This document shows, in pieces, positions 2,160 through 26,756 of a stretch of DNA of 27,386 bases. The notes under the pieces were generated by a model. The model was not told where the DNA came from, searched no databases, and saw only the letters and a program-made list of their open reading frames with translations. Position 1 is the stretch's first letter. Each line of letters starts with the position of its first letter. Origin of the DNA: Nanopusillaceae archaeon (lineage in GTDB: Archaea; Nanobdellota; Nanobdellia; Nanobdellales; Nanobdellaceae). The translations under genes and the position numbers were made by a program. The stretch spans positions 1 through 27,386 of the forward strand of contig JBMFJD010000009.1 in NCBI GenBank assembly GCA_049974095.1. The letters run 5' to 3'.

Positions 2160-2327
2160 ATCGTTTAAAGAAAAACTAGAAGTATTGAAGGAAACGTAAA
2201 AATAGATCCGTTTAAAGTAAGCTAGGAGCTTTAATGAACCCGATAAGGGGGATCTGTTAAAACAAACCTAGGAGCCTTGAGGGATGTGGCTTTCAAAAAG
2301 CCGAATCTGTTAAAAACAACCTAGAAG
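2160..2327 (+). repeat. Four degenerate 23-nt direct repeats separated by unique GC-richer spacers of 23, 23 and 30 nt
   Basis: R1 2160-2182 ATCGTTTAAAGAAAAACTAGAAG. R2 2206-2228 ATCCGTTTAAAGTAAGCTAGGAG. R3 2252-2274 ATCTGTTAAAACAAACCTAGGAG. R4 2305-2327 ATCTGTTAAAAACAACCTAGAAG. R3 and R4 match at 20 of 23 positions. Confidence 0.8.
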
Positions 2328-2335
2328 GTTTTTTT
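2160..2335 (+). ncRNA. Candidate ~175-nt non-coding transcript covering the repeat locus, antisense in orientation to the flanking genes
   Basis: TATA-like tttataaaaa at 2131-2140 lies about 25 nt upstream of R1, and a T7 tract at 2329-2335 follows R4 directly. The locus has locally elevated G+C (gaacccgataaggggg, gagggatgtggc...gcc) in an AT-rich background. Small hairpins are present (ccc-gataa-ggg; ggc-tttcaaaaa-gcc; aagct-agg-agctt; aacct-aga-aggtt). No ORF. Confidence 0.3.
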
Positions 2336-4339: not shown

Positions 4340-6121
4340 TTATTGTTTATTCAATTTTTTCTTTTTCTTTCTACGTTTCTTTATAAATATTATTGAGGTA
4401 GGTATTGATACTAAGATACCAGATACTGTACCTGTGATTGTTATATAATTTAGTTTTATTGTTTTTGTTGGATATAATGATATTTGTATTGGTTGATTTA
4501 CAGTTATGTTTTCTGGGTCTATTGTATATATATTATAGTAAAAGAAACGGTCTTTTATTATTACAGATTTATGTATGTATATTGTTTGGTTTACAGGTAT
4601 GTAATCTGAATATGATGTTATATTTGTTATTGTAATACTTCCTATTGTTATATTTATTGGTAATTTAGAATTTATTTGTACATAGTATTCTGGTATACAA
4701 TAGTTTAATAATTGGATATTTTCTGGACCAGATACTGTTATATTTACCTGTCCTGGACATTCATATCTCAGATTATTATAGTAATAGTATTTGTTTAGGT
4801 ATATTGTTAGTGTTGTTCCATTTTCTACAGTAATTGTATTTTCACCAATATATTGTTTATTATTTACAAAATATTTGCCACCAGGTATGGTAAGATCAAC
4901 AAAATAATATAGTTTGTAATTTAGATTTATTGTATAATTTTTGTCTATTAGTAATGGTATTGATGAACTTGGGTGGAGAATGTTGTTTACATATATACCC
5001 ATTAATTTATAGTAACCACCAGGTACTGTTATAATTGGTGTAAAATTGTATACTTTGTATAGAATTATTGGGGATGTTTCTGTTTCATATTCTTTTGTTA
5101 TTGGGTTATATATTGTTACTGTATAATATGATATATTTTTACTGCCTAAGTAACCTGGATAAAAGTAACCTGTGGATAAATATGCTTCTGTTGATGATAC
5201 TAATAATGGGTTAATGTTTGTAGATTCTTCTGCAGTATTTAGTCCGTAATTAAATACATATGGGGCTGTTGATAAGTTACCGTTGTTATTATATAGTAAA
5301 GCCAGATATCCATCTATTTTATCTGCATATATACATTCGCTGTTTCCTGGTCCTCCTATTACTAATTCCAGATTTTTTACTGTGTAATCTGGGGTGTATG
5401 ATGGAGAAACTTGAAAATATGCAGATACGGAAGGTACTTCAACAGTTACATTATCATACCAGATTGTATTATTTCCATCTAATGAATACCCGAATTGAAT
5501 TACTGGATAAGAGTTATTATTTATATATACTTTCATTATTAAATATACAGCAATTGGGTATATTAGATCATAACTATCTGTTGAATATACATAAAATTTT
5601 GTTGTATGTGGGAAAGAGAAGTATGTTTTTATAATACCTCTACCATATACTGGATAGTTCTCTAATACGTTATCATATTTATTAGCATCCCAGATATTAT
5701 TAACAAATTCATAACTAAGATCTTCATTATTAAAATCAAGAACATTTTGCGCCCATAAATAGTATGTACGTCCATAATTTGAATTAATTGCTACAACACC
5801 ATTTAGTTGTACAGTTCCTGCATTTTCATATTCTGATGCGCATAAAGGACCAGGTTCTGGTTTTGTATCGAAGTATTTTAGATATACAAATCCTACTACC
5901 TCATCAGTATTATATGAATATTGATACACTTTATCGTTTATTAATGCAATACCATAATCTGCTATTCCTACTGGTAAATAAATTAATCCAGAATATTCTG
6001 TAGCATATAAATCTACAAGCGATGAGTAACAACCTAGACCATTTATATTACAAGCATTATATATTGAAAAATAAGATAGATTTGGTAAAGATACAGATAT
6101 AGGAAGACCAAAAAGGGTCAT
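4340..6121 (-). CDS. Large surface/envelope-type glycoprotein with a C-terminal membrane anchor
   Basis: 593 aa. There are many N-x-S/T sequons (NLS, NGT, NNS, NVT, NIS, NFT, NYT, NIT...). The composition is beta-rich and Y/N/T-rich. The C-terminal hydrophobic helix ITITGTVSGILVSIPTSIIFI is followed by the basic tail KKRRKKKKKLNKQ. Confidence 0.7.
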   Translation of the reverse strand: MTLFGLPISVSLPNLSYFSIYNACNINGLGCYSSLVDLYATEYSGLIYLPVGIADYGIALINDKVYQYSYNTDEVVGFVYLKYFDTKPEPGPLCASEYENAGTVQLNGVVAINSNYGRTYYLWAQNVLDFNNEDLSYEFVNNIWDANKYDNVLENYPVYGRGIIKTYFSFPHTTKFYVYSTDSYDLIYPIAVYLIMKVYINNNSYPVIQFGYSLDGNNTIWYDNVTVEVPSVSAYFQVSPSYTPDYTVKNLELVIGGPGNSECIYADKIDGYLALLYNNNGNLSTAPYVFNYGLNTAEESTNINPLLVSSTEAYLSTGYFYPGYLGSKNISYYTVTIYNPITKEYETETSPIILYKVYNFTPIITVPGGYYKLMGIYVNNILHPSSSIPLLIDKNYTINLNYKLYYFVDLTIPGGKYFVNNKQYIGENTITVENGTTLTIYLNKYYYYNNLRYECPGQVNITVSGPENIQLLNYCIPEYYVQINSKLPINITIGSITITNITSYSDYIPVNQTIYIHKSVIIKDRFFYYNIYTIDPENITVNQPIQISLYPTKTIKLNYITITGTVSGILVSIPTSIIFIKKRRKKKKKLNKQ

Positions 6122-6126
6122 GTTAA

Positions 6127-6693
6127 TTAGCTATTTAATATTCCTGTTGGGTTATTTGCTACTATTATAATTAATAATACTAAGAAGAGTAGTGATATAG
6201 ATATCTGTATTATTAGTAATAGCTCTATTTTTGATATTAATTTTTCTCTATCTTTATATTTTGAGTATATTACTAGTGCTATTAGTAGAAATATTATGAA
6301 GAATAAACCGTATGAGAATGCTCCGAATAATGAAGATAGATATATATCTTTAGTTTCTACGTAAGCAATCAGCACTACTATTAGTCCTATTATAATACTA
6401 ATTATTGACATTATTGAACCAGTTAATACTGCAAATAATAGGGCAAATAATAGAAATATTATTATTAGAGTTCCTACTATTAATCTTGATTTTGGCATAT
6501 ACCTTGCCATGATTACTAATACTAGTGTCAATATCGTTAATGTGAGTACTGCCGCATATGAAAATGCGCTACTTGTTGAGGATAATGCTAATGCTGTCAG
6601 GCTCTGGCTCATTAATACTCTTACCAAAATATATATTACTGTAATTACTAATATTCCGATAATTGTGTTTATTACTTTACTTACTTGTACCAT
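6127..6693 (-). CDS. Polytopic integral membrane protein
   Basis: 188 aa, almost entirely hydrophobic, with about 5-6 predicted TM segments. It ends 5 nt upstream of the glycoprotein gene. The conserved promoter motif lies at 6710-6728. Confidence 0.7.
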   Translation of the reverse strand: MVQVSKVINTIIGILVITVIYILVRVLMSQSLTALALSSTSSAFSYAAVLTLTILTLVLVIMARYMPKSRLIVGTLIIIFLLFALLFAVLTGSIMSIISIIIGLIVVLIAYVETKDIYLSSLFGAFSYGLFFIIFLLIALVIYSKYKDREKLISKIELLLIIQISISLLFLVLLIIIVANNPTGILNS

Positions 6694-6709
6694 TATAATA
6701 TATAGTATA

Positions 6710-6728
6710 ACAAATATTTATATGTGTT
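6710..6728 (-). promoter_or_regulatory. Extended TATA promoter motif (minus strand reads aacacatataaatatttgt)
   Basis: Member of the recurrent AACACWTATAARTATTTGT family. The TATA core is about 25 nt upstream of the ATG at 6693. Confidence 0.55.
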
Positions 6729-6944
6729 TTATAGTGGCATGGTAAAAAACTAGTTTTTCTAAATATATATATTATGAAAGTTATTACCGATTTTTGCATG
6801 TTGTTAGGTCTATATGTTAGGAAGCTATATATAAAACCTATGGAACGTTTGAAAATCATAGCTGTATGTTTTGAATGAGTTTATAAATGTTTACGCCTTA
6901 TAATTGGATTGATATTTTTTATTTTTTTTGAAAAAGAAAAATAA

Positions 6945-6962
6945 GGGGTAAGAGTATACCCC
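6945..6962. other. GC-clamped hairpin ggggta-agagta-tacccc at the outer edge of the left arm
   Basis: A 6-bp stem with a 6-nt loop is read directly from the sequence. A degenerate mirror copy lies at about 7570-7589. G4/C4 runs are conspicuous in this AT-rich DNA. Confidence 0.4.
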
Positions 6963-7277
6963 GTAATTATTTCTTACTCAAAAGTAGTAAAATTGTATAT
7001 TATATCATATCTTTTTAAAATATATGCAATATACAATGTAGTAAAAATTTATAAATTTTTTATAATATGTGTTAATATGTATAATATTTGTTTTTATGTG
7101 TTCACATATTTATATTTGTTATATGTATTATTATGTGTATATGTTATTATTATTACTAAGTAGTAGATATGTATATATATTTATAAATATATCTATAAAA
7201 AAGAAGATAATATAGAAATAATATATATTTAAAAAATATAAATAGCTAATAATATGGCAAAAAAGAGATGTTATCAC

Positions 7278-7378
7278 TTATTAATAATAAATAATAACAT
7301 AATAATTTAAATAATTTATTATTATTATTAATTATTATTTTTTAATAATAAATAATTATTAATAATAATTAATATAAA
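7278..7378. other. Near-pure A/T core; candidate DNA unwinding element
   Basis: About 100 bp contain a single C (7298). The tract is built of aataat/attatt units and includes a 15-nt direct repeat, ttaataataaataat, at 7281 and 7342. Confidence 0.5.
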
Positions 7379-7530
7379 CAACTACTGTACAGTGGTAGTA
7401 GTAAAAATTACACATATTATTATGTGTACACATATAAACACATATAACACATAAAAACACATATAAAGAAAAATTTATAAATATTAAGTACAATGCATAA
7501 TATATAATCGTTTTTATATTAGCAAATAGT

Positions 7531-7544
7531 TAACACATGTGTTA
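7531..7544. promoter_or_regulatory. Perfect 14-bp palindrome taacacatgtgtta inside the right arm
   Basis: The sequence is self-complementary as read. It shares the CACATGTG core with the 1112-1132 inverted repeat. Confidence 0.4.
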
Positions 7545-7786
7545 TCACTTTTGAGTAAGAAATAATTACGGGGTTGAACTTATACCTCCTTTTTTGCAAT
7601 TTTTTACAAATTAAAAAAATCAGGTGAAAATGATGGCCTTTAATTTTATAAATACATTCCAAAATATATAAATAACACTTTCCATAAGGGATACATGTTA
7701 CATTCATAAAAATTTATAAAGTCATGTAGAAAGTTCTATAATGGGATATAGAAATTCCTTTAAAGTTATCTAAAATAATATATTTT

Positions 7787-8368
7787 ATGGAAAACATCTA
7801 TAGGATAGTACAAGGAATACGTGATCTTTATGGTGGGGTACCACCATATGCTATTAGTTTTAGAAAGAGAGGTAAATTTCTAAAAGATGCGTTCAAAGTA
7901 ATAGAAAAGCTTTTTGAGGATGGTACTTATAAGGATATATCGAAAGCTGTAATTAATTTATTAGAAATATCAATAATGTATCATATTACAGAAAGAGCTT
8001 CCAGAGAATATTTGGATGACCTGTATTATTTGTTTGTTGATAAATCATCGAATAAAGAATATGCTTATTTTGATGACGAAAAGGTTGAAAAAAATAATAA
8101 TGGTTCTGGAAAAAAGGTTGAAAAAAAGGTCCGGGCTTTGAATATAGATATTAATAAAATAAAACGAGATATTGATACAACAATAGAGATGGCTAAAAAA
8201 TTATTAGATCAAGAAGGATCTTTTATATATAGATATACAGATTATTCTGTACCTAATAAATTTGTAGGAATTGTATTAGAAAAGGAATTTAAATTAACAC
8301 ATAAATTATATAAAATCGATTATAAAAAAGACGGCCTAATGAGATACGCTATTGTAATAACAGTATAA
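7787..8368 (+). CDS. Hypothetical protein, possible HTH DNA-binding protein (first gene right of the palindrome)
   Basis: 193 aa. The segment ISIMYHITERASREYLDDLYYLF fits the common HTH pattern (S/T-x-x-x-A-x-x-Y/D-L-x-x-L). A Lys-rich linker is followed by a beta-rich C-terminus. Confidence 0.55.
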   Translation: MENIYRIVQGIRDLYGGVPPYAISFRKRGKFLKDAFKVIEKLFEDGTYKDISKAVINLLEISIMYHITERASREYLDDLYYLFVDKSSNKEYAYFDDEKVEKNNNGSGKKVEKKVRALNIDINKIKRDIDTTIEMAKKLLDQEGSFIYRYTDYSVPNKFVGIVLEKEFKLTHKLYKIDYKKDGLMRYAIVITV

Positions 8369-8369
8369 G

Positions 8370-8921
8370 ATGGATGAACTAGAGATAGATTTAGGTAATC
8401 TATTATTTTATAGAAAGAATACATCTTTAATAACCGAATACGCTAATCAATTATCGAAAAAAGAGAAATTTATACTGTATTTAGCTGATGCACTATATTA
8501 TCTCCTAACCAAAGGTAATTTGATAATTTCTCCATATACAAAAACAAAAATATCAAAATCTCAGGTAATGCAGATGTTCGAAGTATCCTCTGAGACAGCA
8601 AAAGGGTATTTAGACATTGTTGATAATGAAATGAAAAATCTTGATCCTACTATATCTTATATCTACAATGGGACATTATATATATTTCTTAAGGCTTTAG
8701 AAGACAATATTAGAGTAGAGTTATACGAGTTAGACTTTAAAATAAGAACAGACGGATATATTTTAATTGCATATACAAATGATGATATAATAAATAACAT
8801 ACTAGTTCACTTCATTAAAAATGTTTACTCAGAAAAAGGTTATGAGATAATAGAAAAGCAAGTTACAACTACAACTGGAAAAAGAAAGAGGGTATTGCTA
8901 ATACTCAGACATATTATATAA
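8370..8921 (+). CDS. Hypothetical protein, possible HTH DNA-binding protein
   Basis: 183 aa, starting 1 nt after the previous stop. ISKSQVMQMFEVSSETAKGYLDIVDNEM is HTH-like, and the overall architecture resembles the preceding ORF. Confidence 0.55.
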   Translation: MDELEIDLGNLLFYRKNTSLITEYANQLSKKEKFILYLADALYYLLTKGNLIISPYTKTKISKSQVMQMFEVSSETAKGYLDIVDNEMKNLDPTISYIYNGTLYIFLKALEDNIRVELYELDFKIRTDGYILIAYTNDDIINNILVHFIKNVYSEKGYEIIEKQVTTTTGKRKRVLLILRHII

Positions 8922-8987
8922 AAGCAAATATATATTAATTAAATGTAGCAGGTTAAATATTAAAAGGATTTTTGGTAATACAAATAT

Positions 8988-11132
8988 ATGGCAGAAAAAG
9001 AGAAAAAAGAAAAAATTGTTTTTAGTGGAGGAGTTATACCACTACATACCAGAGAGGTATATATACCAGATAAATTGAAAGAAATGTATATAAACTTTTT
9101 GAAACAGAAGGCACAACAAACATTAACAAATATAGGGATAAATGATGAGTGGGATCTAAAAATAAATGAAGATTTTAAAAAGGTTAAACGTCAAGCTTTG
9201 GAAAATTTCTTTAAATTAGAAGATCCTGGATATACTATTGTAAATTTTGATGATTTATACAAATTCTTATCTTCTATAGGGTTAAGAGATGCTTTTAAGA
9301 AATCTGGGGGTATAATAAAGTATTTATTACCACATTATGTAAATGAAGAATTGAAAATTACTTGGGATCTTCCAATATATATAAAAAATATTCCAGAAAA
9401 ATTTACAAAAACTACAAAAGAATTTTTAGAGTCAGATAGTGACGATGTTGTTGTTTTAAAGGGATTTGTGGATTCTATAACATATATAAATGATATTCCA
9501 GTATTCTTTGTTGTTAGACATTCATTATGTGGAGGTACATTTTTGGTTGAAAATGATATTCCTCATAATAAAGGTTTGAAGAACATATTAAAAAATAAGA
9601 TAAATGCTTGCCCATTATGTGGATCATCTGAAGGTCAATTCGTTGTTGAGAAAATTATTGCAACAGATGCATATAAGTTAACAATAAGTGATATACCAAA
9701 AGATGAAGGAAAAAATGTAAAGTTTGTTGAGGCATATATATTTGGTAAGGCAATGGATTTGTATAGTATACCATCTGCAAGAATTGGTTTGGTTGGTATT
9801 ACTAGAAGGATATTTAATGGTAAAGAGATAGAATCTTATTTAGAAGTTGTTGGTATCGAACCTTTAGATAAAACAGTAGAAGAGATAGAATTAAAGGATG
9901 AAGATATAAAAGAGATTGTAAATACTGTAAGAGGATCTGGATACAATATAATTGATATGATTGCAGAATCTATGTTGCCAAATATAAAAGGAGATCAATA
10001 TAAATATATTAAAAGAGCTGTATTATTACAAGCAATGTCTGTTAGTCAACAAAAAGAAATTGATTTATTAGCAGATAGATTACATATAAATATATTATTA
10101 TTAGGAGATCCAGGTACAGGTAAATCCACATTATTGAGAACAGTTTCAAAACTAATACCTAAATCTAGATATGCTGTAGCTACTTCTTTAACAAAAGCAG
10201 GTTTGTTGGGTACAGTTACTAAATCTGAGGAGGGTAAATGGGTATTAGAAGTTGGTATATTGCCATCAGCATCTGGAGGATTATTATGTGTTGATGAAGT
10301 AAATAAGTTATCTCCAGATGATATAAAATCGTTAAATGAGGCAATGGAACATGGAACTGCAACAATTGATAAAGCAAGTGTACATGTTACATTAAGAGCA
10401 AATGCAGCAGTATTGGCAGCATCGAATCCAAAATATGGAAGATGGGATCCAAATAGAGAGTTAATAAACCAGATAGATATAGAACCAACAATGTTATCCA
10501 GGTTTGATTTAATATTTGTATTAAGAGATATACCAAACAAAGAACAGGATATTTTAGAGGCAAAAGAAATATTGGGAAAAAATAAAGTTGATAATTCATA
10601 CTTTAGTAAAGACTTTATATTGAAATATATAGCATATGCAAGGTCAATAAATCCAGAAATAAGTGATGAAGCAGAAACATATATTGCAAAATTATATGCA
10701 GATCTAAGAGATAAAACAAAAGATACATTTCCAATAACTAAAAGACAATTGGGAACAATAGAAAGATTAGCAATTGCAATTGCTAAAGCCAGGTTGAGTA
10801 ATGTTGTTACAAAAGAAGATGTAGATTATGCATGGGAAATAATATCAAATAGTATATATAGCATGGTTGGTAATGCTACACAGTTAGATTTTGGAGTTGT
10901 TGAAACTGGAGTAAAAAGTAGTGCAAAGAACAGATCAAAATTAGTAAAGGAGGTAATTGAGCAACTAAATAAAACATATGGTAAGGGAGTTACTTTCAAT
11001 GACATATATAATTATCTAAAAGATAAATATGGTTTAGATATATCACAAACAGAACTTAAGGATCTCATTTCGCTATTAAAATATAGTGGGGATATATATG
11101 AACCGGAACCAGGTTTGTACAATGTATTATAA
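8988..11132 (+). CDS. mcm: MCM replicative helicase, full length (N-terminal Zn/OB domain, AAA+ core, C-terminal winged helix)
   Basis: Walker A is ILLLGDPGTGKST and Walker B is LLCVDEVNKL. Sensor 1 is AVLAASNP and the Arg finger is MLSRFDLIFVL. The lid reads ITKRQLGTIERLAIAIAKARLSNVVTKEDVDYA. Zinc motif is HSLCGG...CPLCGS. The linker motif LPNIKGDQYKYIKRAVLLQ precedes the AAA+ core. Confidence 0.9.
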   Translation: MAEKEKKEKIVFSGGVIPLHTREVYIPDKLKEMYINFLKQKAQQTLTNIGINDEWDLKINEDFKKVKRQALENFFKLEDPGYTIVNFDDLYKFLSSIGLRDAFKKSGGIIKYLLPHYVNEELKITWDLPIYIKNIPEKFTKTTKEFLESDSDDVVVLKGFVDSITYINDIPVFFVVRHSLCGGTFLVENDIPHNKGLKNILKNKINACPLCGSSEGQFVVEKIIATDAYKLTISDIPKDEGKNVKFVEAYIFGKAMDLYSIPSARIGLVGITRRIFNGKEIESYLEVVGIEPLDKTVEEIELKDEDIKEIVNTVRGSGYNIIDMIAESMLPNIKGDQYKYIKRAVLLQAMSVSQQKEIDLLADRLHINILLLGDPGTGKSTLLRTVSKLIPKSRYAVATSLTKAGLLGTVTKSEEGKWVLEVGILPSASGGLLCVDEVNKLSPDDIKSLNEAMEHGTATIDKASVHVTLRANAAVLAASNPKYGRWDPNRELINQIDIEPTMLSRFDLIFVLRDIPNKEQDILEAKEILGKNKVDNSYFSKDFILKYIAYARSINPEISDEAETYIAKLYADLRDKTKDTFPITKRQLGTIERLAIAIAKARLSNVVTKEDVDYAWEIISNSIYSMVGNATQLDFGVVETGVKSSAKNRSKLVKEVIEQLNKTYGKGVTFNDIYNYLKDKYGLDISQTELKDLISLLKYSGDIYEPEPGLYNVL

Positions 11133-14299: not shown

Positions 14300-14321
14300 A
14301 AACACATATAAGTATTTGTTT
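14300..14321 (+). promoter_or_regulatory. Extended TATA promoter motif aaacacatataagtatttgttt
   Basis: The TATA core is about 25 nt upstream of the ATG at 14335. An identical 22-mer recurs at 26735-26756. Confidence 0.55.
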
Positions 14322-14334
14322 GTAAATATGTATT

Positions 14335-15192
14335 ATGGATTTCCAAGATTTAGTGAATGGTCTATTCCCATCACTAAAGGGGAATGTTTACAAATATATT
14401 AGACAAGCTGTTGCATATCAATTAATCTCTATAGGAAAGACACCTTTCTTTAGAGATTCTATACATATATTATTATTAGGAGAACCTGGTACTGGGAAAT
14501 CTCATATGTTAAAATATGTAAGTATGATACCCGGAAATAAATATGTAAACGGGGAAAATCTAACAATTGCAGGTTTGATAGGATATACTAGTATGTATAA
14601 TGTACAGCAGGGTGTTGTATCTTTAGTAAATGGTATATTATGTATAGATGAGATAACAAAAGCAAATAAAACTGTAAGAGAAAGGATGAATGAATTATTA
14701 GAAGAGCTATCTGTTACTATTGCTAAAGCTGGTAAGATGGTAAAATATGATGTAAATCTTGCTGTACTTGCTGCTGCAAATCCAAAACATGGGGTATTTA
14801 AAGGTAAAGATATTATTGAACAGATAGATTTACCTCCAACAGTTGTTGACAGGTTTGATTTAATATTTGTATTAAGAACTCAAAATATAGATAAAATAGC
14901 AACGGAGAATTATGTATTTAATAATGATGAATTAGTAAAATATTTGAATGAAGTAAGGAGTATAAATCCAGATATTGGTATATTTGATTTAGGTAAATTA
15001 AATATAGCATTACCTACATCTGGTGTATATTTATCAGATAGAAGATTAATGACTATATTAAGATTAGCAAAAGCAATAGCCAGATCATATAAAGATAATG
15101 TAGTAAAAGATGAATATATTGAAGAGGCCGAAAAATTCTTTATTAAAGTAGTAAATAGATTATTCGGATATGATATACAAGATATTGACTAA
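14335..15192 (+). CDS. Stand-alone MCM-type AAA+ core (no N-terminal domain, no winged helix), catalytic motifs intact
   Basis: It starts exactly at the MCM linker motif (LFPSLKGNVYKYIRQAVAYQL, compared with LPNIKGDQYKYIKRAVLLQ in the full MCM). Walker A is ILLLGEPGTGKSH and Walker B is LCIDEITKA. Sensor 1 is AVLAAANP and the Arg finger is VVDRFDLIFVL. The lid reads LSDRRLMTILRLAKAIARSYKDNVVKDEYIEEA. A 28-nt identity to mcm links 14850-14877 with 10499-10526. Confidence 0.85.
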   Translation: MDFQDLVNGLFPSLKGNVYKYIRQAVAYQLISIGKTPFFRDSIHILLLGEPGTGKSHMLKYVSMIPGNKYVNGENLTIAGLIGYTSMYNVQQGVVSLVNGILCIDEITKANKTVRERMNELLEELSVTIAKAGKMVKYDVNLAVLAAANPKHGVFKGKDIIEQIDLPPTVVDRFDLIFVLRTQNIDKIATENYVFNNDELVKYLNEVRSINPDIGIFDLGKLNIALPTSGVYLSDRRLMTILRLAKAIARSYKDNVVKDEYIEEAEKFFIKVVNRLFGYDIQDID

Positions 15193-16972
15193 TAGGGATC
15201 CATATAATTTTGTATATAATAATAACCCATATGATGTAGTTGTAGGCTTATACTATAATAACTCATTAATTATAGATTTAGATCAATATAATAATATAAT
15301 ATCATCTGTTACTAATGATTATTTTAATTTACCAAAAACATTAGTACCATTTTCAACTATAACAAATGCTTTACTTAATTTACAGAATTCTTTGGATATA
15401 TTAGATACAGGTGCTATTATACAATTGCTATCTGGTAATGTAAAGATATCCTCAAATAAACCATTGATATTCTTCATAGTAAGGGATAGAAATAATCCTA
15501 TATATAATATATTAAAGTCAAAATATAATCTATATGAGGTACCTGTTAAGGATGCTAGTGTAAGGGATCATTCTATATATCTAAGAAGGGTTGTATGTTC
15601 AGCAGGTCATTATATAATAACATGGAAGAAATACCCTCCAATTGTATGTCCTATATGTTCTATGAAGGGACAGATATCTAAGATTGTTGGATTTACAGAT
15701 TTCATATATTCAGATAAGATGATTATATTATATGATGAATATGGTAAGATGAATATAATTGTAGATACAGATCTATATGATTTTATGAAAAAATTGGATA
15801 CAGATTATAAGTTAATAATAATGGATATTTCTCCATATAAATCTGAATTAAAAGAGACAAGAATTAATAGATTATTCTATGCTGTTGGATTATTAATTGA
15901 AGATAAGAGGACATATAATTATGATGAAATAATATCTTTCTTTAACCTAAATATTGATGATAAGATAAGATATATGCTAAATGCAAGTAAGATTGAGGAT
16001 CTGGTTATATCATTACCACTAATGTTTCAACAGATGGATAAATTTACAGTATTATATGTTGATATAAATCAGAAATATGTTCCATTAATATTTGAATCAT
16101 ATAGTAGATACAATAGTGCATCAGTAGAAAATATACTAGATATTGAAAATCCTGTATTGATGAATGTACAAGATTTGCCTGCAGGTATTAGATATAAGAT
16201 AAATGCTATGTTATTGAATCATGAGATAAATCTGGTAATGTTATTTAAATATTCATATGGAATGAGGGCTGTAGATTTTACATCATTTGACTCATTCTAT
16301 AATTCATTATCAAGATCTTTCTTAACATTCTTTGATAAGATAGACTTTATTGTACCATATATTATTGATTTTAAGTTTGAAGTAAGTGAAAGGAATATTT
16401 CAAACATATTTAATTTCATTAAACATCTATCAAGATCAATAAAGGTATATGATAAAAACTTTGAGAATATATTTTATTCAGAGGTTGAGAGGATAGGTAG
16501 AGTATATAGTCAATATAGTGATATACTTGCATATAAGAAAACAACAATAAATAAATTATCGAAATTGTTTGCTATATTAAATAAGAGGAATAGAATAGAG
16601 TTAGATGATATCAGATATGCAATAGGATATTATAGTGTAATGCATTTATTACCATTTGTTGTAACAGATGTAAAGGCAAAGGATGTATTGGATTTATATA
16701 AAGATTATATTAAGTTTATATATGACAGATACGTTAATGTACAGCAACAGAAGAGAGTAATATCTACTAAAAGAGATATTGAGGAACTAATATATGAAAT
16801 ATTAAGAACAGGTCCGAAAACAATAATAGAGATAAGAAAGGCTATTGAGAATATGAGGGATAAGATGATAGTTAAGAGTGGTATAAATCTATATATAATG
16901 ATTGAGAGGGTTTTGAATGAGCTAACATCTCAAGGTAGGATTAAATATAATAATGGTTTGTATTCCTTATGA
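15170..16972 (+). CDS. Full-length MCM-like protein with degenerate (probably inactive) ATPase motifs
   Basis: The N-terminal Zn/OB-like region reads VVCSAGH...CPICS, followed by FIYSDKMIILYDE. Where Walker A is expected, the sequence is EINLVMLFKYSYGMRAV, with no GxxGxGK(S/T). FDKIDFIVPY stands in place of SRFDLIFVL. A lid-like INKLSKLFAILNKRNRIELDDIRYAIGYY is present, and a wH-like C-terminus ends in GRIKYNNGLYSL (mcm ends GDIYEPEPGLYNVL). It overlaps the upstream ORF by 23 nt in the +1 frame. Confidence 0.65.
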   Translation: MIYKILTNRDPYNFVYNNNPYDVVVGLYYNNSLIIDLDQYNNIISSVTNDYFNLPKTLVPFSTITNALLNLQNSLDILDTGAIIQLLSGNVKISSNKPLIFFIVRDRNNPIYNILKSKYNLYEVPVKDASVRDHSIYLRRVVCSAGHYIITWKKYPPIVCPICSMKGQISKIVGFTDFIYSDKMIILYDEYGKMNIIVDTDLYDFMKKLDTDYKLIIMDISPYKSELKETRINRLFYAVGLLIEDKRTYNYDEIISFFNLNIDDKIRYMLNASKIEDLVISLPLMFQQMDKFTVLYVDINQKYVPLIFESYSRYNSASVENILDIENPVLMNVQDLPAGIRYKINAMLLNHEINLVMLFKYSYGMRAVDFTSFDSFYNSLSRSFLTFFDKIDFIVPYIIDFKFEVSERNISNIFNFIKHLSRSIKVYDKNFENIFYSEVERIGRVYSQYSDILAYKKTTINKLSKLFAILNKRNRIELDDIRYAIGYYSVMHLLPFVVTDVKAKDVLDLYKDYIKFIYDRYVNVQQQKRVISTKRDIEELIYEILRTGPKTIIEIRKAIENMRDKMIVKSGINLYIMIERVLNELTSQGRIKYNNGLYSL

Positions 16973-17228
16973 TATATATTTAGATGATGGAGTAGAATTA
17001 AACAAATTATTTAGTATGCTAAATGATGAGAATATTAAGAAAATTAGGGAATTTTTAATTAAATATGTAAATAGCAATAATTACTTAGAGTTAATAAATG
17101 ATACAGATATCCAAAATAATCAGGATATAATATATATAATGAAGTATCTTGGTATTATTACTGAAGTATCTGGTAAATACTATATAATTATACCTGTAGC
17201 GAAAACACTTATAAATATTTGTCAGTAA
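16953..17228 (+). CDS. Small hypothetical protein (possible winged-helix)
   Basis: 91-aa ORF overlapping the previous gene by 20 nt. No strong motifs. Its 3' end contains the promoter motif of the next gene. Confidence 0.5.
   Translation: MVCIPYDIYLDDGVELNKLFSMLNDENIKKIREFLIKYVNSNNYLELINDTDIQNNQDIIYIMKYLGIITEVSGKYYIIIPVAKTLINICQ
17204..17223 (+). promoter_or_regulatory. Extended TATA promoter motif aacacttataaatatttgtc
   Basis: The same 20-mer occurs at 18043-18062. The motif starts 33 nt upstream of the ATG at 17237. Confidence 0.55.
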
Positions 17229-17236
17229 TATATAGT

Positions 17237-17836
17237 ATGGAATACAAATTAGAAGTTTTATCTCCAATATTGTCAGGTTTATCAAACGATTATTTTAGCT
17301 TTAGGGTTTTTACTAAAATAGATTTTTCAGATTTTAGGGTAGTATCTAAGATTAAGTTAACAGCAGAAGATCTTACTGGATATGAAAAAGAGATGGAAGA
17401 AAAAGGTAGAGACGTTGTACTAAAGGAAATTTATGAGAAGAAAAAAGATGCCATAGAGAAAGAATTATTAAGATTAGGGTATGTAAAGCTTGGATATTTA
17501 TTTCCAAGAAAGCATTTTAATATAGATTCTATAAAGACAAAAGATGATTATGTTAATTGGATAGATTATATTGCATTATTTTCAAGAGGTATAGTATTTA
17601 CTTTAGAAAAAGAACATAAAATTAAGGCAAAGATAGAGGATATTAAACCAATTAATGTATCTTTAGGGGTACACTTATTATATTATGATAATGCAAAGAT
17701 TGTAGTTGCTTATGAAGCAATACTACCAGGTTCTTTATTCTCTATAACATTTGATTCTAAAATAGAACCAGATATTGTTGTTCGTATTGGAAGGTTAAGA
17801 AAATTCGGATTTGGTAGGGTTATTATAAAAGAATGA
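17237..17836 (+). CDS. Orphan RAMP/Cas6-like protein (candidate)
   Basis: I prefer the ATG at 17237 (MEYKLEV...) over the TTG at 17219 because of the promoter spacing. The N-terminal strand YKLEVLSPILSG, the internal YEAILPGSLFSITF, and the C-terminal glycine-rich loop VVRIGRLRKFGFGRVIIKE match the RAMP signature (hG-x5-GhG followed by a terminal beta strand). Confidence 0.45.
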   Translation: MEYKLEVLSPILSGLSNDYFSFRVFTKIDFSDFRVVSKIKLTAEDLTGYEKEMEEKGRDVVLKEIYEKKKDAIEKELLRLGYVKLGYLFPRKHFNIDSIKTKDDYVNWIDYIALFSRGIVFTLEKEHKIKAKIEDIKPINVSLGVHLLYYDNAKIVVAYEAILPGSLFSITFDSKIEPDIVVRIGRLRKFGFGRVIIKE

Positions 17837-18042: not shown

Positions 18043-18062
18043 AACACTTATAAATATTTGTC
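18043..18062 (+). promoter_or_regulatory. Extended TATA promoter motif aacacttataaatatttgtc
   Basis: The motif starts 34 nt upstream of the ATG at 18077. This supports the ATG over the GTG at 18032 used by the ORF track. Confidence 0.55.
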
Positions 18063-18076
18063 TAATACGTATTTTT

Positions 18077-18709
18077 ATGGATAGGAAAAGTATTATTGCT
18101 ATTTCTTTATCTGCACTTATAGCAATATCTGTACTCTTATTTGTGATAACTCATAGGAATTCTGTTAATGAATATAAAATATTATATGAAATAGCGGCAA
18201 CAGGTAATACATATATACCTGGAGGTGATAAAATAATTACAGTATATTTCTCTCCAGAAGATCCATATTCAATCTTGTTTTTAGCTTATGATTTACCAAT
18301 ATACATGAAGAATAATTTTACAGTAATATTAAGACCTGTATCATCAGATAACGATTCTTTATTGATAGGATGTTATAATAGTATAACGTATGATCAGCTA
18401 ATGAAAATTATTGAAAACTTTACATATGCATATAATAATTCTCCAAGTTATGTAATCCAATGTTTCAATAATAATCAGTCTTATCAATATATACTAACCA
18501 ATTATGAGATACTCGTAGGGACTCATATGTTGGGAACACCAGCATACTTTTTAGTATTTCCATCAGGAAATATTACTGCAATAAATGATACTCTAAGAAC
18601 ACTGGATGTTATTGTAAATCCTATAAGATACGATAATGATTATATTATGTTGTTATATGGATACATACCAGTAAATGTTACAGAGAAAATAGTACAGGAG
18701 ATTCAATAA
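18077..18709 (+). CDS. N-terminally anchored membrane/secreted protein
   Basis: The product begins MDRKSIIAISLSALIAISVLLFVITH (signal anchor). There is a weak resemblance to a Cys-less thioredoxin/DsbA-like fold: ITVYFSPEDPYSILF where CPxC would sit, and LGTPAYFLVFPSGN. N-x-S/T sequons are present. Confidence 0.6.
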   Translation: MDRKSIIAISLSALIAISVLLFVITHRNSVNEYKILYEIAATGNTYIPGGDKIITVYFSPEDPYSILFLAYDLPIYMKNNFTVILRPVSSDNDSLLIGCYNSITYDQLMKIIENFTYAYNNSPSYVIQCFNNNQSYQYILTNYEILVGTHMLGTPAYFLVFPSGNITAINDTLRTLDVIVNPIRYDNDYIMLLYGYIPVNVTEKIVQEIQ

Positions 18710-18726
18710 ATATTTATAAGTGTTTT
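18708..18726 (+). promoter_or_regulatory. Inverted copy of the extended TATA motif (aaatatttataagtgtttt)
   Basis: This is the reverse complement of aaaacacttataaatattt (17202-17220). The TATA core is again about 26 nt upstream of an ATG (18742). Confidence 0.5.
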
Positions 18727-26734: not shown

Positions 26735-26756
26735 AAACACATATAAGTATTTGTTT
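26735..26756. promoter_or_regulatory. Extended TATA promoter motif aaacacatataagtatttgttt (identical to 14300-14321)
   Basis: The TATA core lies about 26 nt from the minus-strand ATG at 26718, giving the same geometry as the inverted copy at 18708-18726. It could also serve the plus-strand ORF at 26808, but only with a leader. Confidence 0.45.

Follow-up and report, generated by a model that had tools for sequence, protein, structure and literature searches.

A solo RAMP-like gene on an archaeal mobile element

The stretch of DNA analysed here (the window; 27,386 nt of contig JBMFJD010000009.1 from the Nanopusillaceae archaeon assembly GCA_049974095.1) is an unclassified archaeal mobile element of ~28% G+C, and its gene at 17237-17836 encodes a small protein for which our analyses support a predicted RAMP-like identity. 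The gene starts with an ATG at 17237, ends with a TGA at 17834-17836 and specifies a product of 199 amino acids (aa), MEYKLEV...GRVIIKE. Six close homologues were found among 5.8 billion proteins, and because all six are 199 aa long and share the N-terminus MEYKLEV, the TTG at 17219, which a mechanical list of open reading frames (ORFs) gives as the start, is unlikely to be the true one. The ratio of nonsynonymous to synonymous substitution rates (dN/dS) was 0.10 against the homologue with 81% identity and 0.19 against that with 65% identity. The gene is real and under purifying selection, which confirms the ORF of ~200 aa that an earlier note, made from the sequence alone, had placed here.

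The gene is preceded by a TATA-like motif of 19 nt, AACACTTATAAATATTTGT, with a gap of 14 nt between the motif and the ATG. Six copies of this motif, AACAC(T/A)TATAA(A/G)TATTTGT, occur in the window where 0.16 would be expected (Table 1). Five of them, including an inverted copy at 18706-18724, end 14-17 nt 5' of a gene start, and no downstream gene start was identified for the copy at 26736-26754. At the RAMP-like gene the motif lies inside the 3' end of the gene before it and is still unchanged in the homologue loci L003 and L015, which between them carry the homologues with 65% and 81% identity. Since the motif is over-represented, stands before gene starts and is identical upstream of homologues despite its overlap with the 3' end of another gene, the RAMP-like gene is very probably served by a promoter of its own and, judging from archaeal promoter geometry, yields a leaderless transcript. 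The motif itself is probably a shared promoter or regulatory element of a co-regulated, perhaps early, set of genes.

The window holds no recognisable CRISPR-Cas system. Window ORFs of at least 70 aa lying outside larger genes were scanned (smaller and nested ORFs were left out), and no Cas family was found among them with Pfam, NCBIfam, PADLOC or PHROGs. The window also lacks cas10 and the known acr and aca genes, and Rfam returned nothing over its gathering thresholds there. When the window and every locus with a homologue were scanned for repeats, no CRISPR-like array emerged, and cas genes and arrays were likewise not found in the window or in the fetched homologue loci (L001-L003, L006-L012 and L015-L019). 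The library and repeat scans of the window therefore agree with the earlier note, which had seen no cas neighbours and no canonical CRISPR array in these 27 kb.

The predicted fold and a C-terminal motif pair resemble type III CRISPR subunits

An AlphaFold model was built from a family alignment of 23 sequences, which includes distant members from an exhaustive profile search, and reached a predicted local distance difference test score (pLDDT) of 94.5 and a predicted template modelling score (pTM) of 0.87. When this model was compared with the PDB using Foldseek, CRISPR RAMP subunits accounted for 48 of the 50 best matches. The best of these was Cmr3 from Pyrococcus and Archaeoglobus (E 2.6e-3, probability 1.00, ~84 columns, root-mean-square deviation ~3.2 Å), with an identity over the alignment of 24-26% to the Pyrococcus chains and 15-16% to the Archaeoglobus chains. 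It was followed by a chain of a type IV-B complex, by type I-D and type VII Cas7-like subunits and by Csm/Cmr subunits that include Cmr4. The label "Cas6-like" in the earlier note was not borne out, as a single Cas6 stood among these 50 matches, at rank 46 with E ~1, while the nearest structures are Cmr3, a member of the Cas5 family, and Cas7-like proteins of types III and IV.

A profile made from the C-terminal 72 residues of 13 diverse family members had Pyrococcus Cmr3 as its top match in the whole PDB (E 0.0087). RAMPs were six of the seven matches with E < 10, all six aligned at their glycine-rich loops, and the register was set by a pair of motifs, A-I-P-x-G-S...F and G-basic-x-basic-K-x-G-[FY]-G. 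Judged by the condition in the earlier note that some RAMP profile should match the protein significantly, the outcome is borderline: only this sub-profile, run against PDB sequences, came near, and the curated RAMP profiles of Pfam and NCBIfam gave nothing.

Within the family, R91, E160, G191 and G193 are invariant across the 23 sequences, which extend down to 28% identity, and P10, R23, F89, P90, I109 and S166 are nearly so. The three motifs quoted in the earlier note are present at residues 5-14, 161-172 and 183-199, and because they hold invariant or nearly invariant residues across the 23 homologues they represent the conserved core of the family and not chance strings. Strand 1 of the model comprises residues 2-7, and the nearly invariant P10 belongs to the first motif, LEVLSPILSG. 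The second, AILPGSLFSITF, lies within a stretch, EAILPGSLFSITF, that both HMMER and hhalign pair with AIPPGSVLFVEF of Pyrococcus Cmr3. The third, RIGRLRKFGFGRVIIKE, was aligned by HMMER with the glycine-rich loops found in Cmr3, in a type III-D Cas7-Cas5-Cas11 fusion and in type III-E RAMP-superfamily effector chains. A hallmark of RAMPs, a glycine-rich loop ahead of the last beta-strand, is present in the 23 sequences with basic residues before G191 and G193, and the family is uniformly basic (isoelectric point (pI) 7.8-9.6).

Cmr3 (type III-B; Pyrococcus furiosus PDB 3w2w, 4h4k and 3x1l; Archaeoglobus fulgidus PDB 9l7c) is therefore the best match in both structure and sequence. The two proteins have in common a C-terminal A(I/V)PxGS..F followed at equal spacing by (I/L)G+x+KxG(F/Y)G and the last strand, such that AILPGSLFSITF...IGRLRKFGFG aligns with AIPPGSVLFVEF...LGKLKKLGYG of the Pyrococcus protein. 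They differ in that Cmr3 has 320-360 aa and two RAMP-like domains, whereas the solo protein has one domain and lacks the N-terminal PxDxLxFRxxRPF found in Cmr3 of Thermus, Archaeoglobus and Pyrococcus. In addition, its gene stands on a mobile element with neither a cas10/cmr2 partner nor a cas operon.

An orphan, single-domain, RAMP-like protein, as the earlier note had proposed, is thus supported by a confident predicted fold whose neighbours are almost all RAMPs together with the C-terminal profile match at the glycine-rich loop of Cmr3, and not by standard profiles. The best explanation for the likeness is that the protein derives from, or shares ancestry with, the CRISPR RNA (crRNA)-binding subunits of type III effector complexes, with the C-terminal half being the most Cmr3-like.

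Several results weigh against a RAMP identity. Foldseek found no match in the PDB at E <= 0.001, and its matches were local or of low TM-score (~0.3). The N-terminal sub-profile had no match in the PDB, the full-length profile of 23 sequences returned only noise from PDB sequences, and Pfam, NCBIfam, PADLOC and PHROGs assigned no RAMP or Cas family to the protein or to any of the 23 members. Comparison by hhalign with single Thermus Csm3, Csm4, Csm5, Cmr1, Cmr3, Cmr4 and Cmr6 sequences scored the same as with non-RAMP controls, while a four-sequence alignment of the Cmr3 C-terminus recovered the same register with a P of only 0.013-0.035. These results could be accommodated by an unrelated small, beta-rich protein in which a glycine-rich C-terminus and a local fold have converged by chance on RAMP features. 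Such a protein would be expected to escape the curated profiles, to reach no Foldseek match at E 1e-3 and to give profile-profile P values of ~0.02 against Cmr3, and the model does depend on the 23-sequence alignment, given that the seven closest sequences alone yielded a pLDDT of 34.5 and no usable structure. However, three independent methods, Foldseek, HMMER against the PDB and an hhalign match to a viral protein that itself touches the Pfam RAMPs (described below) converge on the same region and class, and RAMPs as 48 of the 50 top structural neighbours cannot be a matter of chance. We consider an unrelated protein with chance likeness to RAMPs very unlikely.

A rare family on otherwise unrelated elements

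The RAMP-like family is rare. Among 1.84 billion cluster representatives, an exhaustive search with HMMER recovered 17 members only, and 16 more distant cluster representatives extend the family beyond the six close homologues. All members lie on AT-rich metagenome contigs (27-33% G+C), and the sequencing runs that could be traced, two in number, are from hot springs in Kamchatka. The source metagenomes include JGI 3300041912, SRR25937769 and SRR6344961. Scans of 185,579 species-representative genomes yielded no relatives, and tblastn with the protein gave no match among phage records. IMG/VR produced only partial matches to two giant-virus contigs (32% over residues 9-86), which were judged spurious.

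In the closer clade (42-99% identity), down to the 42%-identical homologue of L009, the gene keeps its place behind genes for an MCM AAA+-only protein, a 600-aa protein and a 91-aa protein (Table 1). This order is not kept in L006, L012 or L018, and distant members have wholly different neighbours. An all-against-all BLASTP comparison showed that the RAMP-like gene is the sole gene common to the window element and to L012 and L018, and that the window and L006 share only this gene and an MCM gene, which in L006 lies ~3 kb from the RAMP-like gene. Since it is the one gene in common between otherwise unrelated elements (in L006 together with MCM), it appears from these comparisons to behave as an exchangeable accessory gene that would work alone or with host factors.

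The gene order in the closer clade is what an accessory of an MCM replication module might display, for instance an RRM-like protein that binds the origin, primers or single-stranded DNA and whose likeness to RAMPs reflects a shared ferredoxin-like fold only. The gene lies directly 3' of the MCM AAA+-only, 600-aa and 91-aa genes, an arrangement that is held at 42% identity; the MCM gene of L006 is close by, and the promoter motif is common to the RAMP-like and MCM-like genes. Nevertheless, L012 and L018 carry the gene without those neighbours, the neighbours in L006 differ, and the proteins closest in structure are RAMPs rather than replication proteins. The virus that encodes a distant relative (see below) has no MCM. 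Identity as an archaeo-eukaryotic primase (AEP) or an HUH Rep protein was rejected, as the catalytic motifs of neither are conserved across the 23 sequences. Overall, a replication role is distinctly unlikely.

We also considered whether the 600-aa and 91-aa neighbours could be a Cas10/Cas8-like large subunit and a Cas11-like small subunit of a minimal effector. These candidates were rejected, as the 600-aa protein has nothing beyond weak hints to MCM and the distant carriers have neither gene. In L018, where the RAMP-like homologue has 36% identity, adjacent E1/ThiF-like and JAB/MPN-like proteins (58-1182) appear, from motifs read by eye, to form a ubiquitin-like conjugation pair, and the same locus encodes a glycosyltransferase-like membrane protein.

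A distant relative within an anti-defence locus of a filamentous virus

A Foldseek search of predicted viral structures ranked first A7WKN2, which is annotated as hypothetical and corresponds to ORF161, or gp13, of Acidianus filamentous virus 7 (AFV7; Betalipothrixvirus pezzuloense); a phage protein annotated as RAMP superfamily ranked second. The family profile matched ORF161 in hhalign with a P of 6.2e-5 over 55 C-terminal columns, two orders of magnitude ahead of any other among the 56 AFV7 proteins (next 0.0089). No relative was detected among 19 selected AFV3 proteins (140-211 aa). The N-terminus of ORF161, IIIEILTPVIAPS, resembles the LEVxTPILAG of the family, its YEYLIAGS pairs with EAILPGSLFSITF and its IGAKKNKGFGIIKL is aligned to RIGRLRKFGFGRVIIKE. 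ORF161 by itself has sub-threshold Pfam matches to RAMPs (E 0.052) and to Cas_Cas6_C (E 0.082, nearly the whole model covered), and a profile made of ORF161 and its homologue in Los Azufres archaeal virus 2 (LAV2), orf18, touches Csm5 at the motif IPgSsLKGAlR.

AFV7 gp13 and LAV2 orf18, the latter likewise annotated as hypothetical, are small solo proteins of crenarchaeal viruses that share with the family described here an N-terminal E-[IV]-L-T-P-[VI] and a C-terminal YE..xGS ... IGxKKxKGFG. At 161-166 aa they lack the helical insertion of ~40 residues found in the family, and they feature an extra motif, IPxxxxxGALR, which matches Csm5. Their carriers are filamentous viruses and not MCM-carrying elements.

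In AFV7, gp13 is flanked by genes with links to anti-defence. gp11 (ORF109) is a DUF1874/STIV_B116-like protein of the AcrIII-1 family. gp12 (ORF223) is an AcrIIIB1 homologue and gp14 (ORF117) is the predicted anti-defence gene ADG.05 (both PMC11065993, supplementary data). By analogy, this locus points to a role for gp13, and at one remove for the RAMP-like family, that would be specific to type III CRISPR, an argument from guilt by association.

A candidate decoy for type III CRISPR complexes

Our favoured reading, which we hold tentatively and would put somewhat short of an even chance, is that the protein acts as a RAMP-derived decoy against type III CRISPR and would therefore be a Cas-derived anti-CRISPR. 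A solo protein with a predicted RAMP fold, expressed from what is probably a strong promoter of its own on a hot-spring element of archaea without CRISPR-Cas, would capture crRNA of the host or associate with the host Cas10-Cmr/Csm complex and so displace a genuine RAMP subunit. The resulting defective complexes would blunt type III interference against the element. Among the roles that the earlier note had offered, a decoy would gain circumstantial support from the neighbourhood of AFV7 gp13, and processing of the element's own repeats at 2160-2335 gains none. Published work recognises the anti-defence genes of archaeal viruses by a strong-promoter motif that they share (PMC11065993), and the motif in front of the RAMP-like gene fits this criterion.

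Binding to RNA or Cas proteins, and inhibition of CRISPR, are activities that we infer for the protein. There are also considerations that speak against a decoy. The promoter motif also precedes the MCM-like gene and hence may mark early genes in general. A fixed site behind the MCM-related block across 42-65% protein identity is more typical of a core gene than of an anti-defence gene with fast turnover. The kinship between AFV7 gp13 and the RAMP-like family is remote, beyond detection by BLAST, and gp13 itself is absent from the list of predicted anti-defence genes (PMC11065993).

A RAMP-like fold would also suit a protein that binds or cuts RNA in the service of the element without inhibiting CRISPR, such as a minimal Cas6-like endoribonuclease or a chaperone acting on the element's own transcripts (for example an RNA from 2160-2335) or on host RNAs. 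The RAMP/RRM-like fold with its basic glycine-rich loop, the basic pI of the whole family (7.8-9.6), the coverage of nearly the whole Cas_Cas6_C model by the sub-threshold match of AFV7 ORF161 and the four degenerate units of ~25 nt at 2160-2335 are all compatible with such a role. Like Cas6, the protein combines a RAMP fold, here a predicted one, with a C-terminal glycine-rich loop. However, Cas6 proteins usually have two RAMP domains and 240-260 aa, whereas the solo protein has a single domain, no conserved catalytic His and no repeat array to process. No invariant His was found across the 23 sequences (H93 is conserved in the closer clade only and is lost in half of the family), nor was a conserved set of His, Tyr and Lys residues that might form a catalytic site, and Cas6 is just 46th among the structural neighbours. 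As a substrate array, 2160-2335 was rejected: the units are degenerate, with a period of 43-53 nt, do not make up a canonical array, contain no stem-loop that we could find and have a single sub-threshold Rfam match, to CRISPR-DR44 (19 bits, with a gathering threshold of 35). Moreover, the distant carriers have no further sequence in common with the window, so the gene is not accompanied by any repeat. We regard an RNA-processing or chaperone role of this type as unlikely. The units at 2160-2335 may instead be iterons, sites for a regulator or a small RNA.

The closest precedent for a decoy is AcrIB3, a Cas5-homologue anti-CRISPR from a Listeria prophage that was shown experimentally to assemble into a defective Cascade, in a study that also listed 358 orphan cas genes of viruses (bioRxiv 10.1101/2023.06.24.545427). 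Both are orphan RAMP genes of Cas5 type on mobile elements, with no array or operon, and for both the proposed action is to poison an effector complex. AcrIB3 is bacterial, acts on type I-B and is 38% identical to its cognate Cas5, whereas the archaeal family resembles Cas proteins at the level of motifs and fold only and its likely target would be type III. The statement in the earlier note that any of its three proposed roles would be new biology goes too far in the light of this example, given that Cas homologues on mobile elements that act against CRISPR are already known in bacteria.

AcrIIIB1, AcrIIIB2 and AcrIII-1 share with the solo protein the proposed target, type III, and the kind of carrier. 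No sequence relationship between them and the solo protein was detected, and no homologues of them were found in the window. To our knowledge, their mechanisms (complex binding and ring-nuclease activity) involve no Cas-like fold.

A more radical possibility, which we rate as highly improbable, is a minimal, self-sufficient RAMP that re-purposes host crRNAs or Cas10 complexes, either against competing viruses and plasmids or for silencing of host genes, or else a free-living RAMP lineage among archaeal viruses and plasmids that predates CRISPR.

What appears to be new, from the sequence comparisons and the predicted structure, is a putative archaeal family of type III-RAMP-like proteins, their divergence to the point where only structure prediction and sub-profile searches reveal the family, and the link to an unannotated gene within the anti-type-III locus of AFV7. 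No description of the family was found in the literature, of which our coverage was incomplete. Few anti-CRISPRs of archaeal viruses are known and none has been reported as Cas-derived, while the Cas-homologue anti-CRISPRs recognised so far are all bacterial and were found through similarity at BLAST level. The present family suggests that hot-spring elements of archaea exchange RAMP-derived solo genes which are too divergent for standard Cas profiles. If a decoy role is correct, the protein would be, as far as the literature searched shows, the first RAMP mimic that inhibits type III CRISPR, a tool with which to probe Cmr/Csm assembly, and a case for seeking the orphan cas genes of viruses by structure rather than by sequence. 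The family is a concrete candidate that can be tested in the genetic systems available for Sulfolobales.

Features of the carrying element

The remaining features of the window are listed in Table 1 together with those of the RAMP-like gene.

Table 1. Positions of the RAMP-like gene, its motifs and the other features discussed (window coordinates, except for the AFV7 locus).
Feature	Position	Strand	Remarks
Solo RAMP-like protein gene, 199 aa	17237..17836, stop included	+	ORF translation, homologues, dN/dS, AlphaFold model, Foldseek
N-terminal strand motif LEVLSPILSG, residues 5-14	17249..17278	+	Family consensus LEVxTPILAG
Motif (Y)EAILPGSLFSITF, residues 160-172	17714..17752	+	E160 invariant, S166 nearly so
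Basic glycine-rich loop and last strand RIGRLRKFGFGRVIIKE, residues 183-199	17783..17833	+	G191 and G193 invariant
Promoter-like 19-nt TATA-like motif AACACTTATAAATATTTGT	17204..17222	+	Over-represented in the window, upstream of gene starts
Copies of the 19-nt motif	6710-6728(-), 14301-14319, 17204-17222, 18043-18061, 18706-18724(-), 26736-26754		
Three genes preceding the RAMP-like gene	14335..17228	+	MCM AAA+-only, 600-aa and 91-aa proteins
MCM AAA+-only protein, 285 aa	14335-15192	+	Pfam MCM
600-aa protein	15170-16972	+	Zn-ribbon
91-aa protein	16953-17228	+	
AFV7 gp11-gp14 locus (L022)	6199-9013 of AM087122	-	gp13 amid anti-defence genes
Third AAA+ protein, 243 aa	353-1084	-	
Four degenerate ~25-nt units ATCyGTTwAA..AAnCTAGrAG	2160-2335		Period 43-53 nt; intergenic, between two minus-strand genes
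Second tandem paralogue pair, 303 and 327 aa	2334-4281	-	~70-77% identity over matching stretches
Thermopsin-family acid protease	4340-6121	-	Pfam E 1.5e-51
Non-coding region, ~1 kb, probable origin	6745-7786		19.6% G+C; between divergent gene blocks, upstream of the MCM-containing operon
Inverted repeat, 111-nt arms	7023-7133 / 7396-7506		Nested in the non-coding region
Inverted repeat, 33-nt arms	6958-6990 / 7542-7574		94% complementary; nested in the non-coding region
Full MCM helicase	8988-11132		
Three tandem paralogous genes, 305, 340 and 346 aa	11189-14276		68-80% nucleotide identity

Comparison of the window with phage and plasmid records at the DNA level gave no match. At the protein level its MCM had matches of only ~30% identity, and two other window proteins that were searched had none. 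Positions 1-20821 correspond to 8166-28986 of the JGI contig Ga0453806_32047 (L001/L020; 28,986 bp) with 99.8-99.9% identity. The contig overhangs the window by 8.1 kb on the left, the window overhangs the contig by 6.5 kb on the right, and the element therefore measures at least ~35.5 kb if both assemblies stem from one element. The additional part of the contig encodes a VWA/DUF2201-type protein and other uncharacterised proteins.

The AT-rich non-coding region between the divergent gene blocks, with its nested inverted repeats and many AT-rich tandem repeats, is probably a replication origin. Besides its Zn-ribbon, the 600-aa protein has a weak, collinear and non-significant likeness to the Zn, lid and winged-helix regions of MCM, and it may, along with the MCM AAA+-only protein and the third AAA+ protein, represent a split or degenerate second MCM.

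No database match was found for the tandem paralogues of either group, and their recent expansion suggests surface or host-interaction proteins. The element also encodes a Thr/Pro-rich protein whose C-terminal segment is hydrophobic and resembles a membrane anchor. The thermopsin-family protease is an unusual cargo and suggests a thermoacidophilic host.

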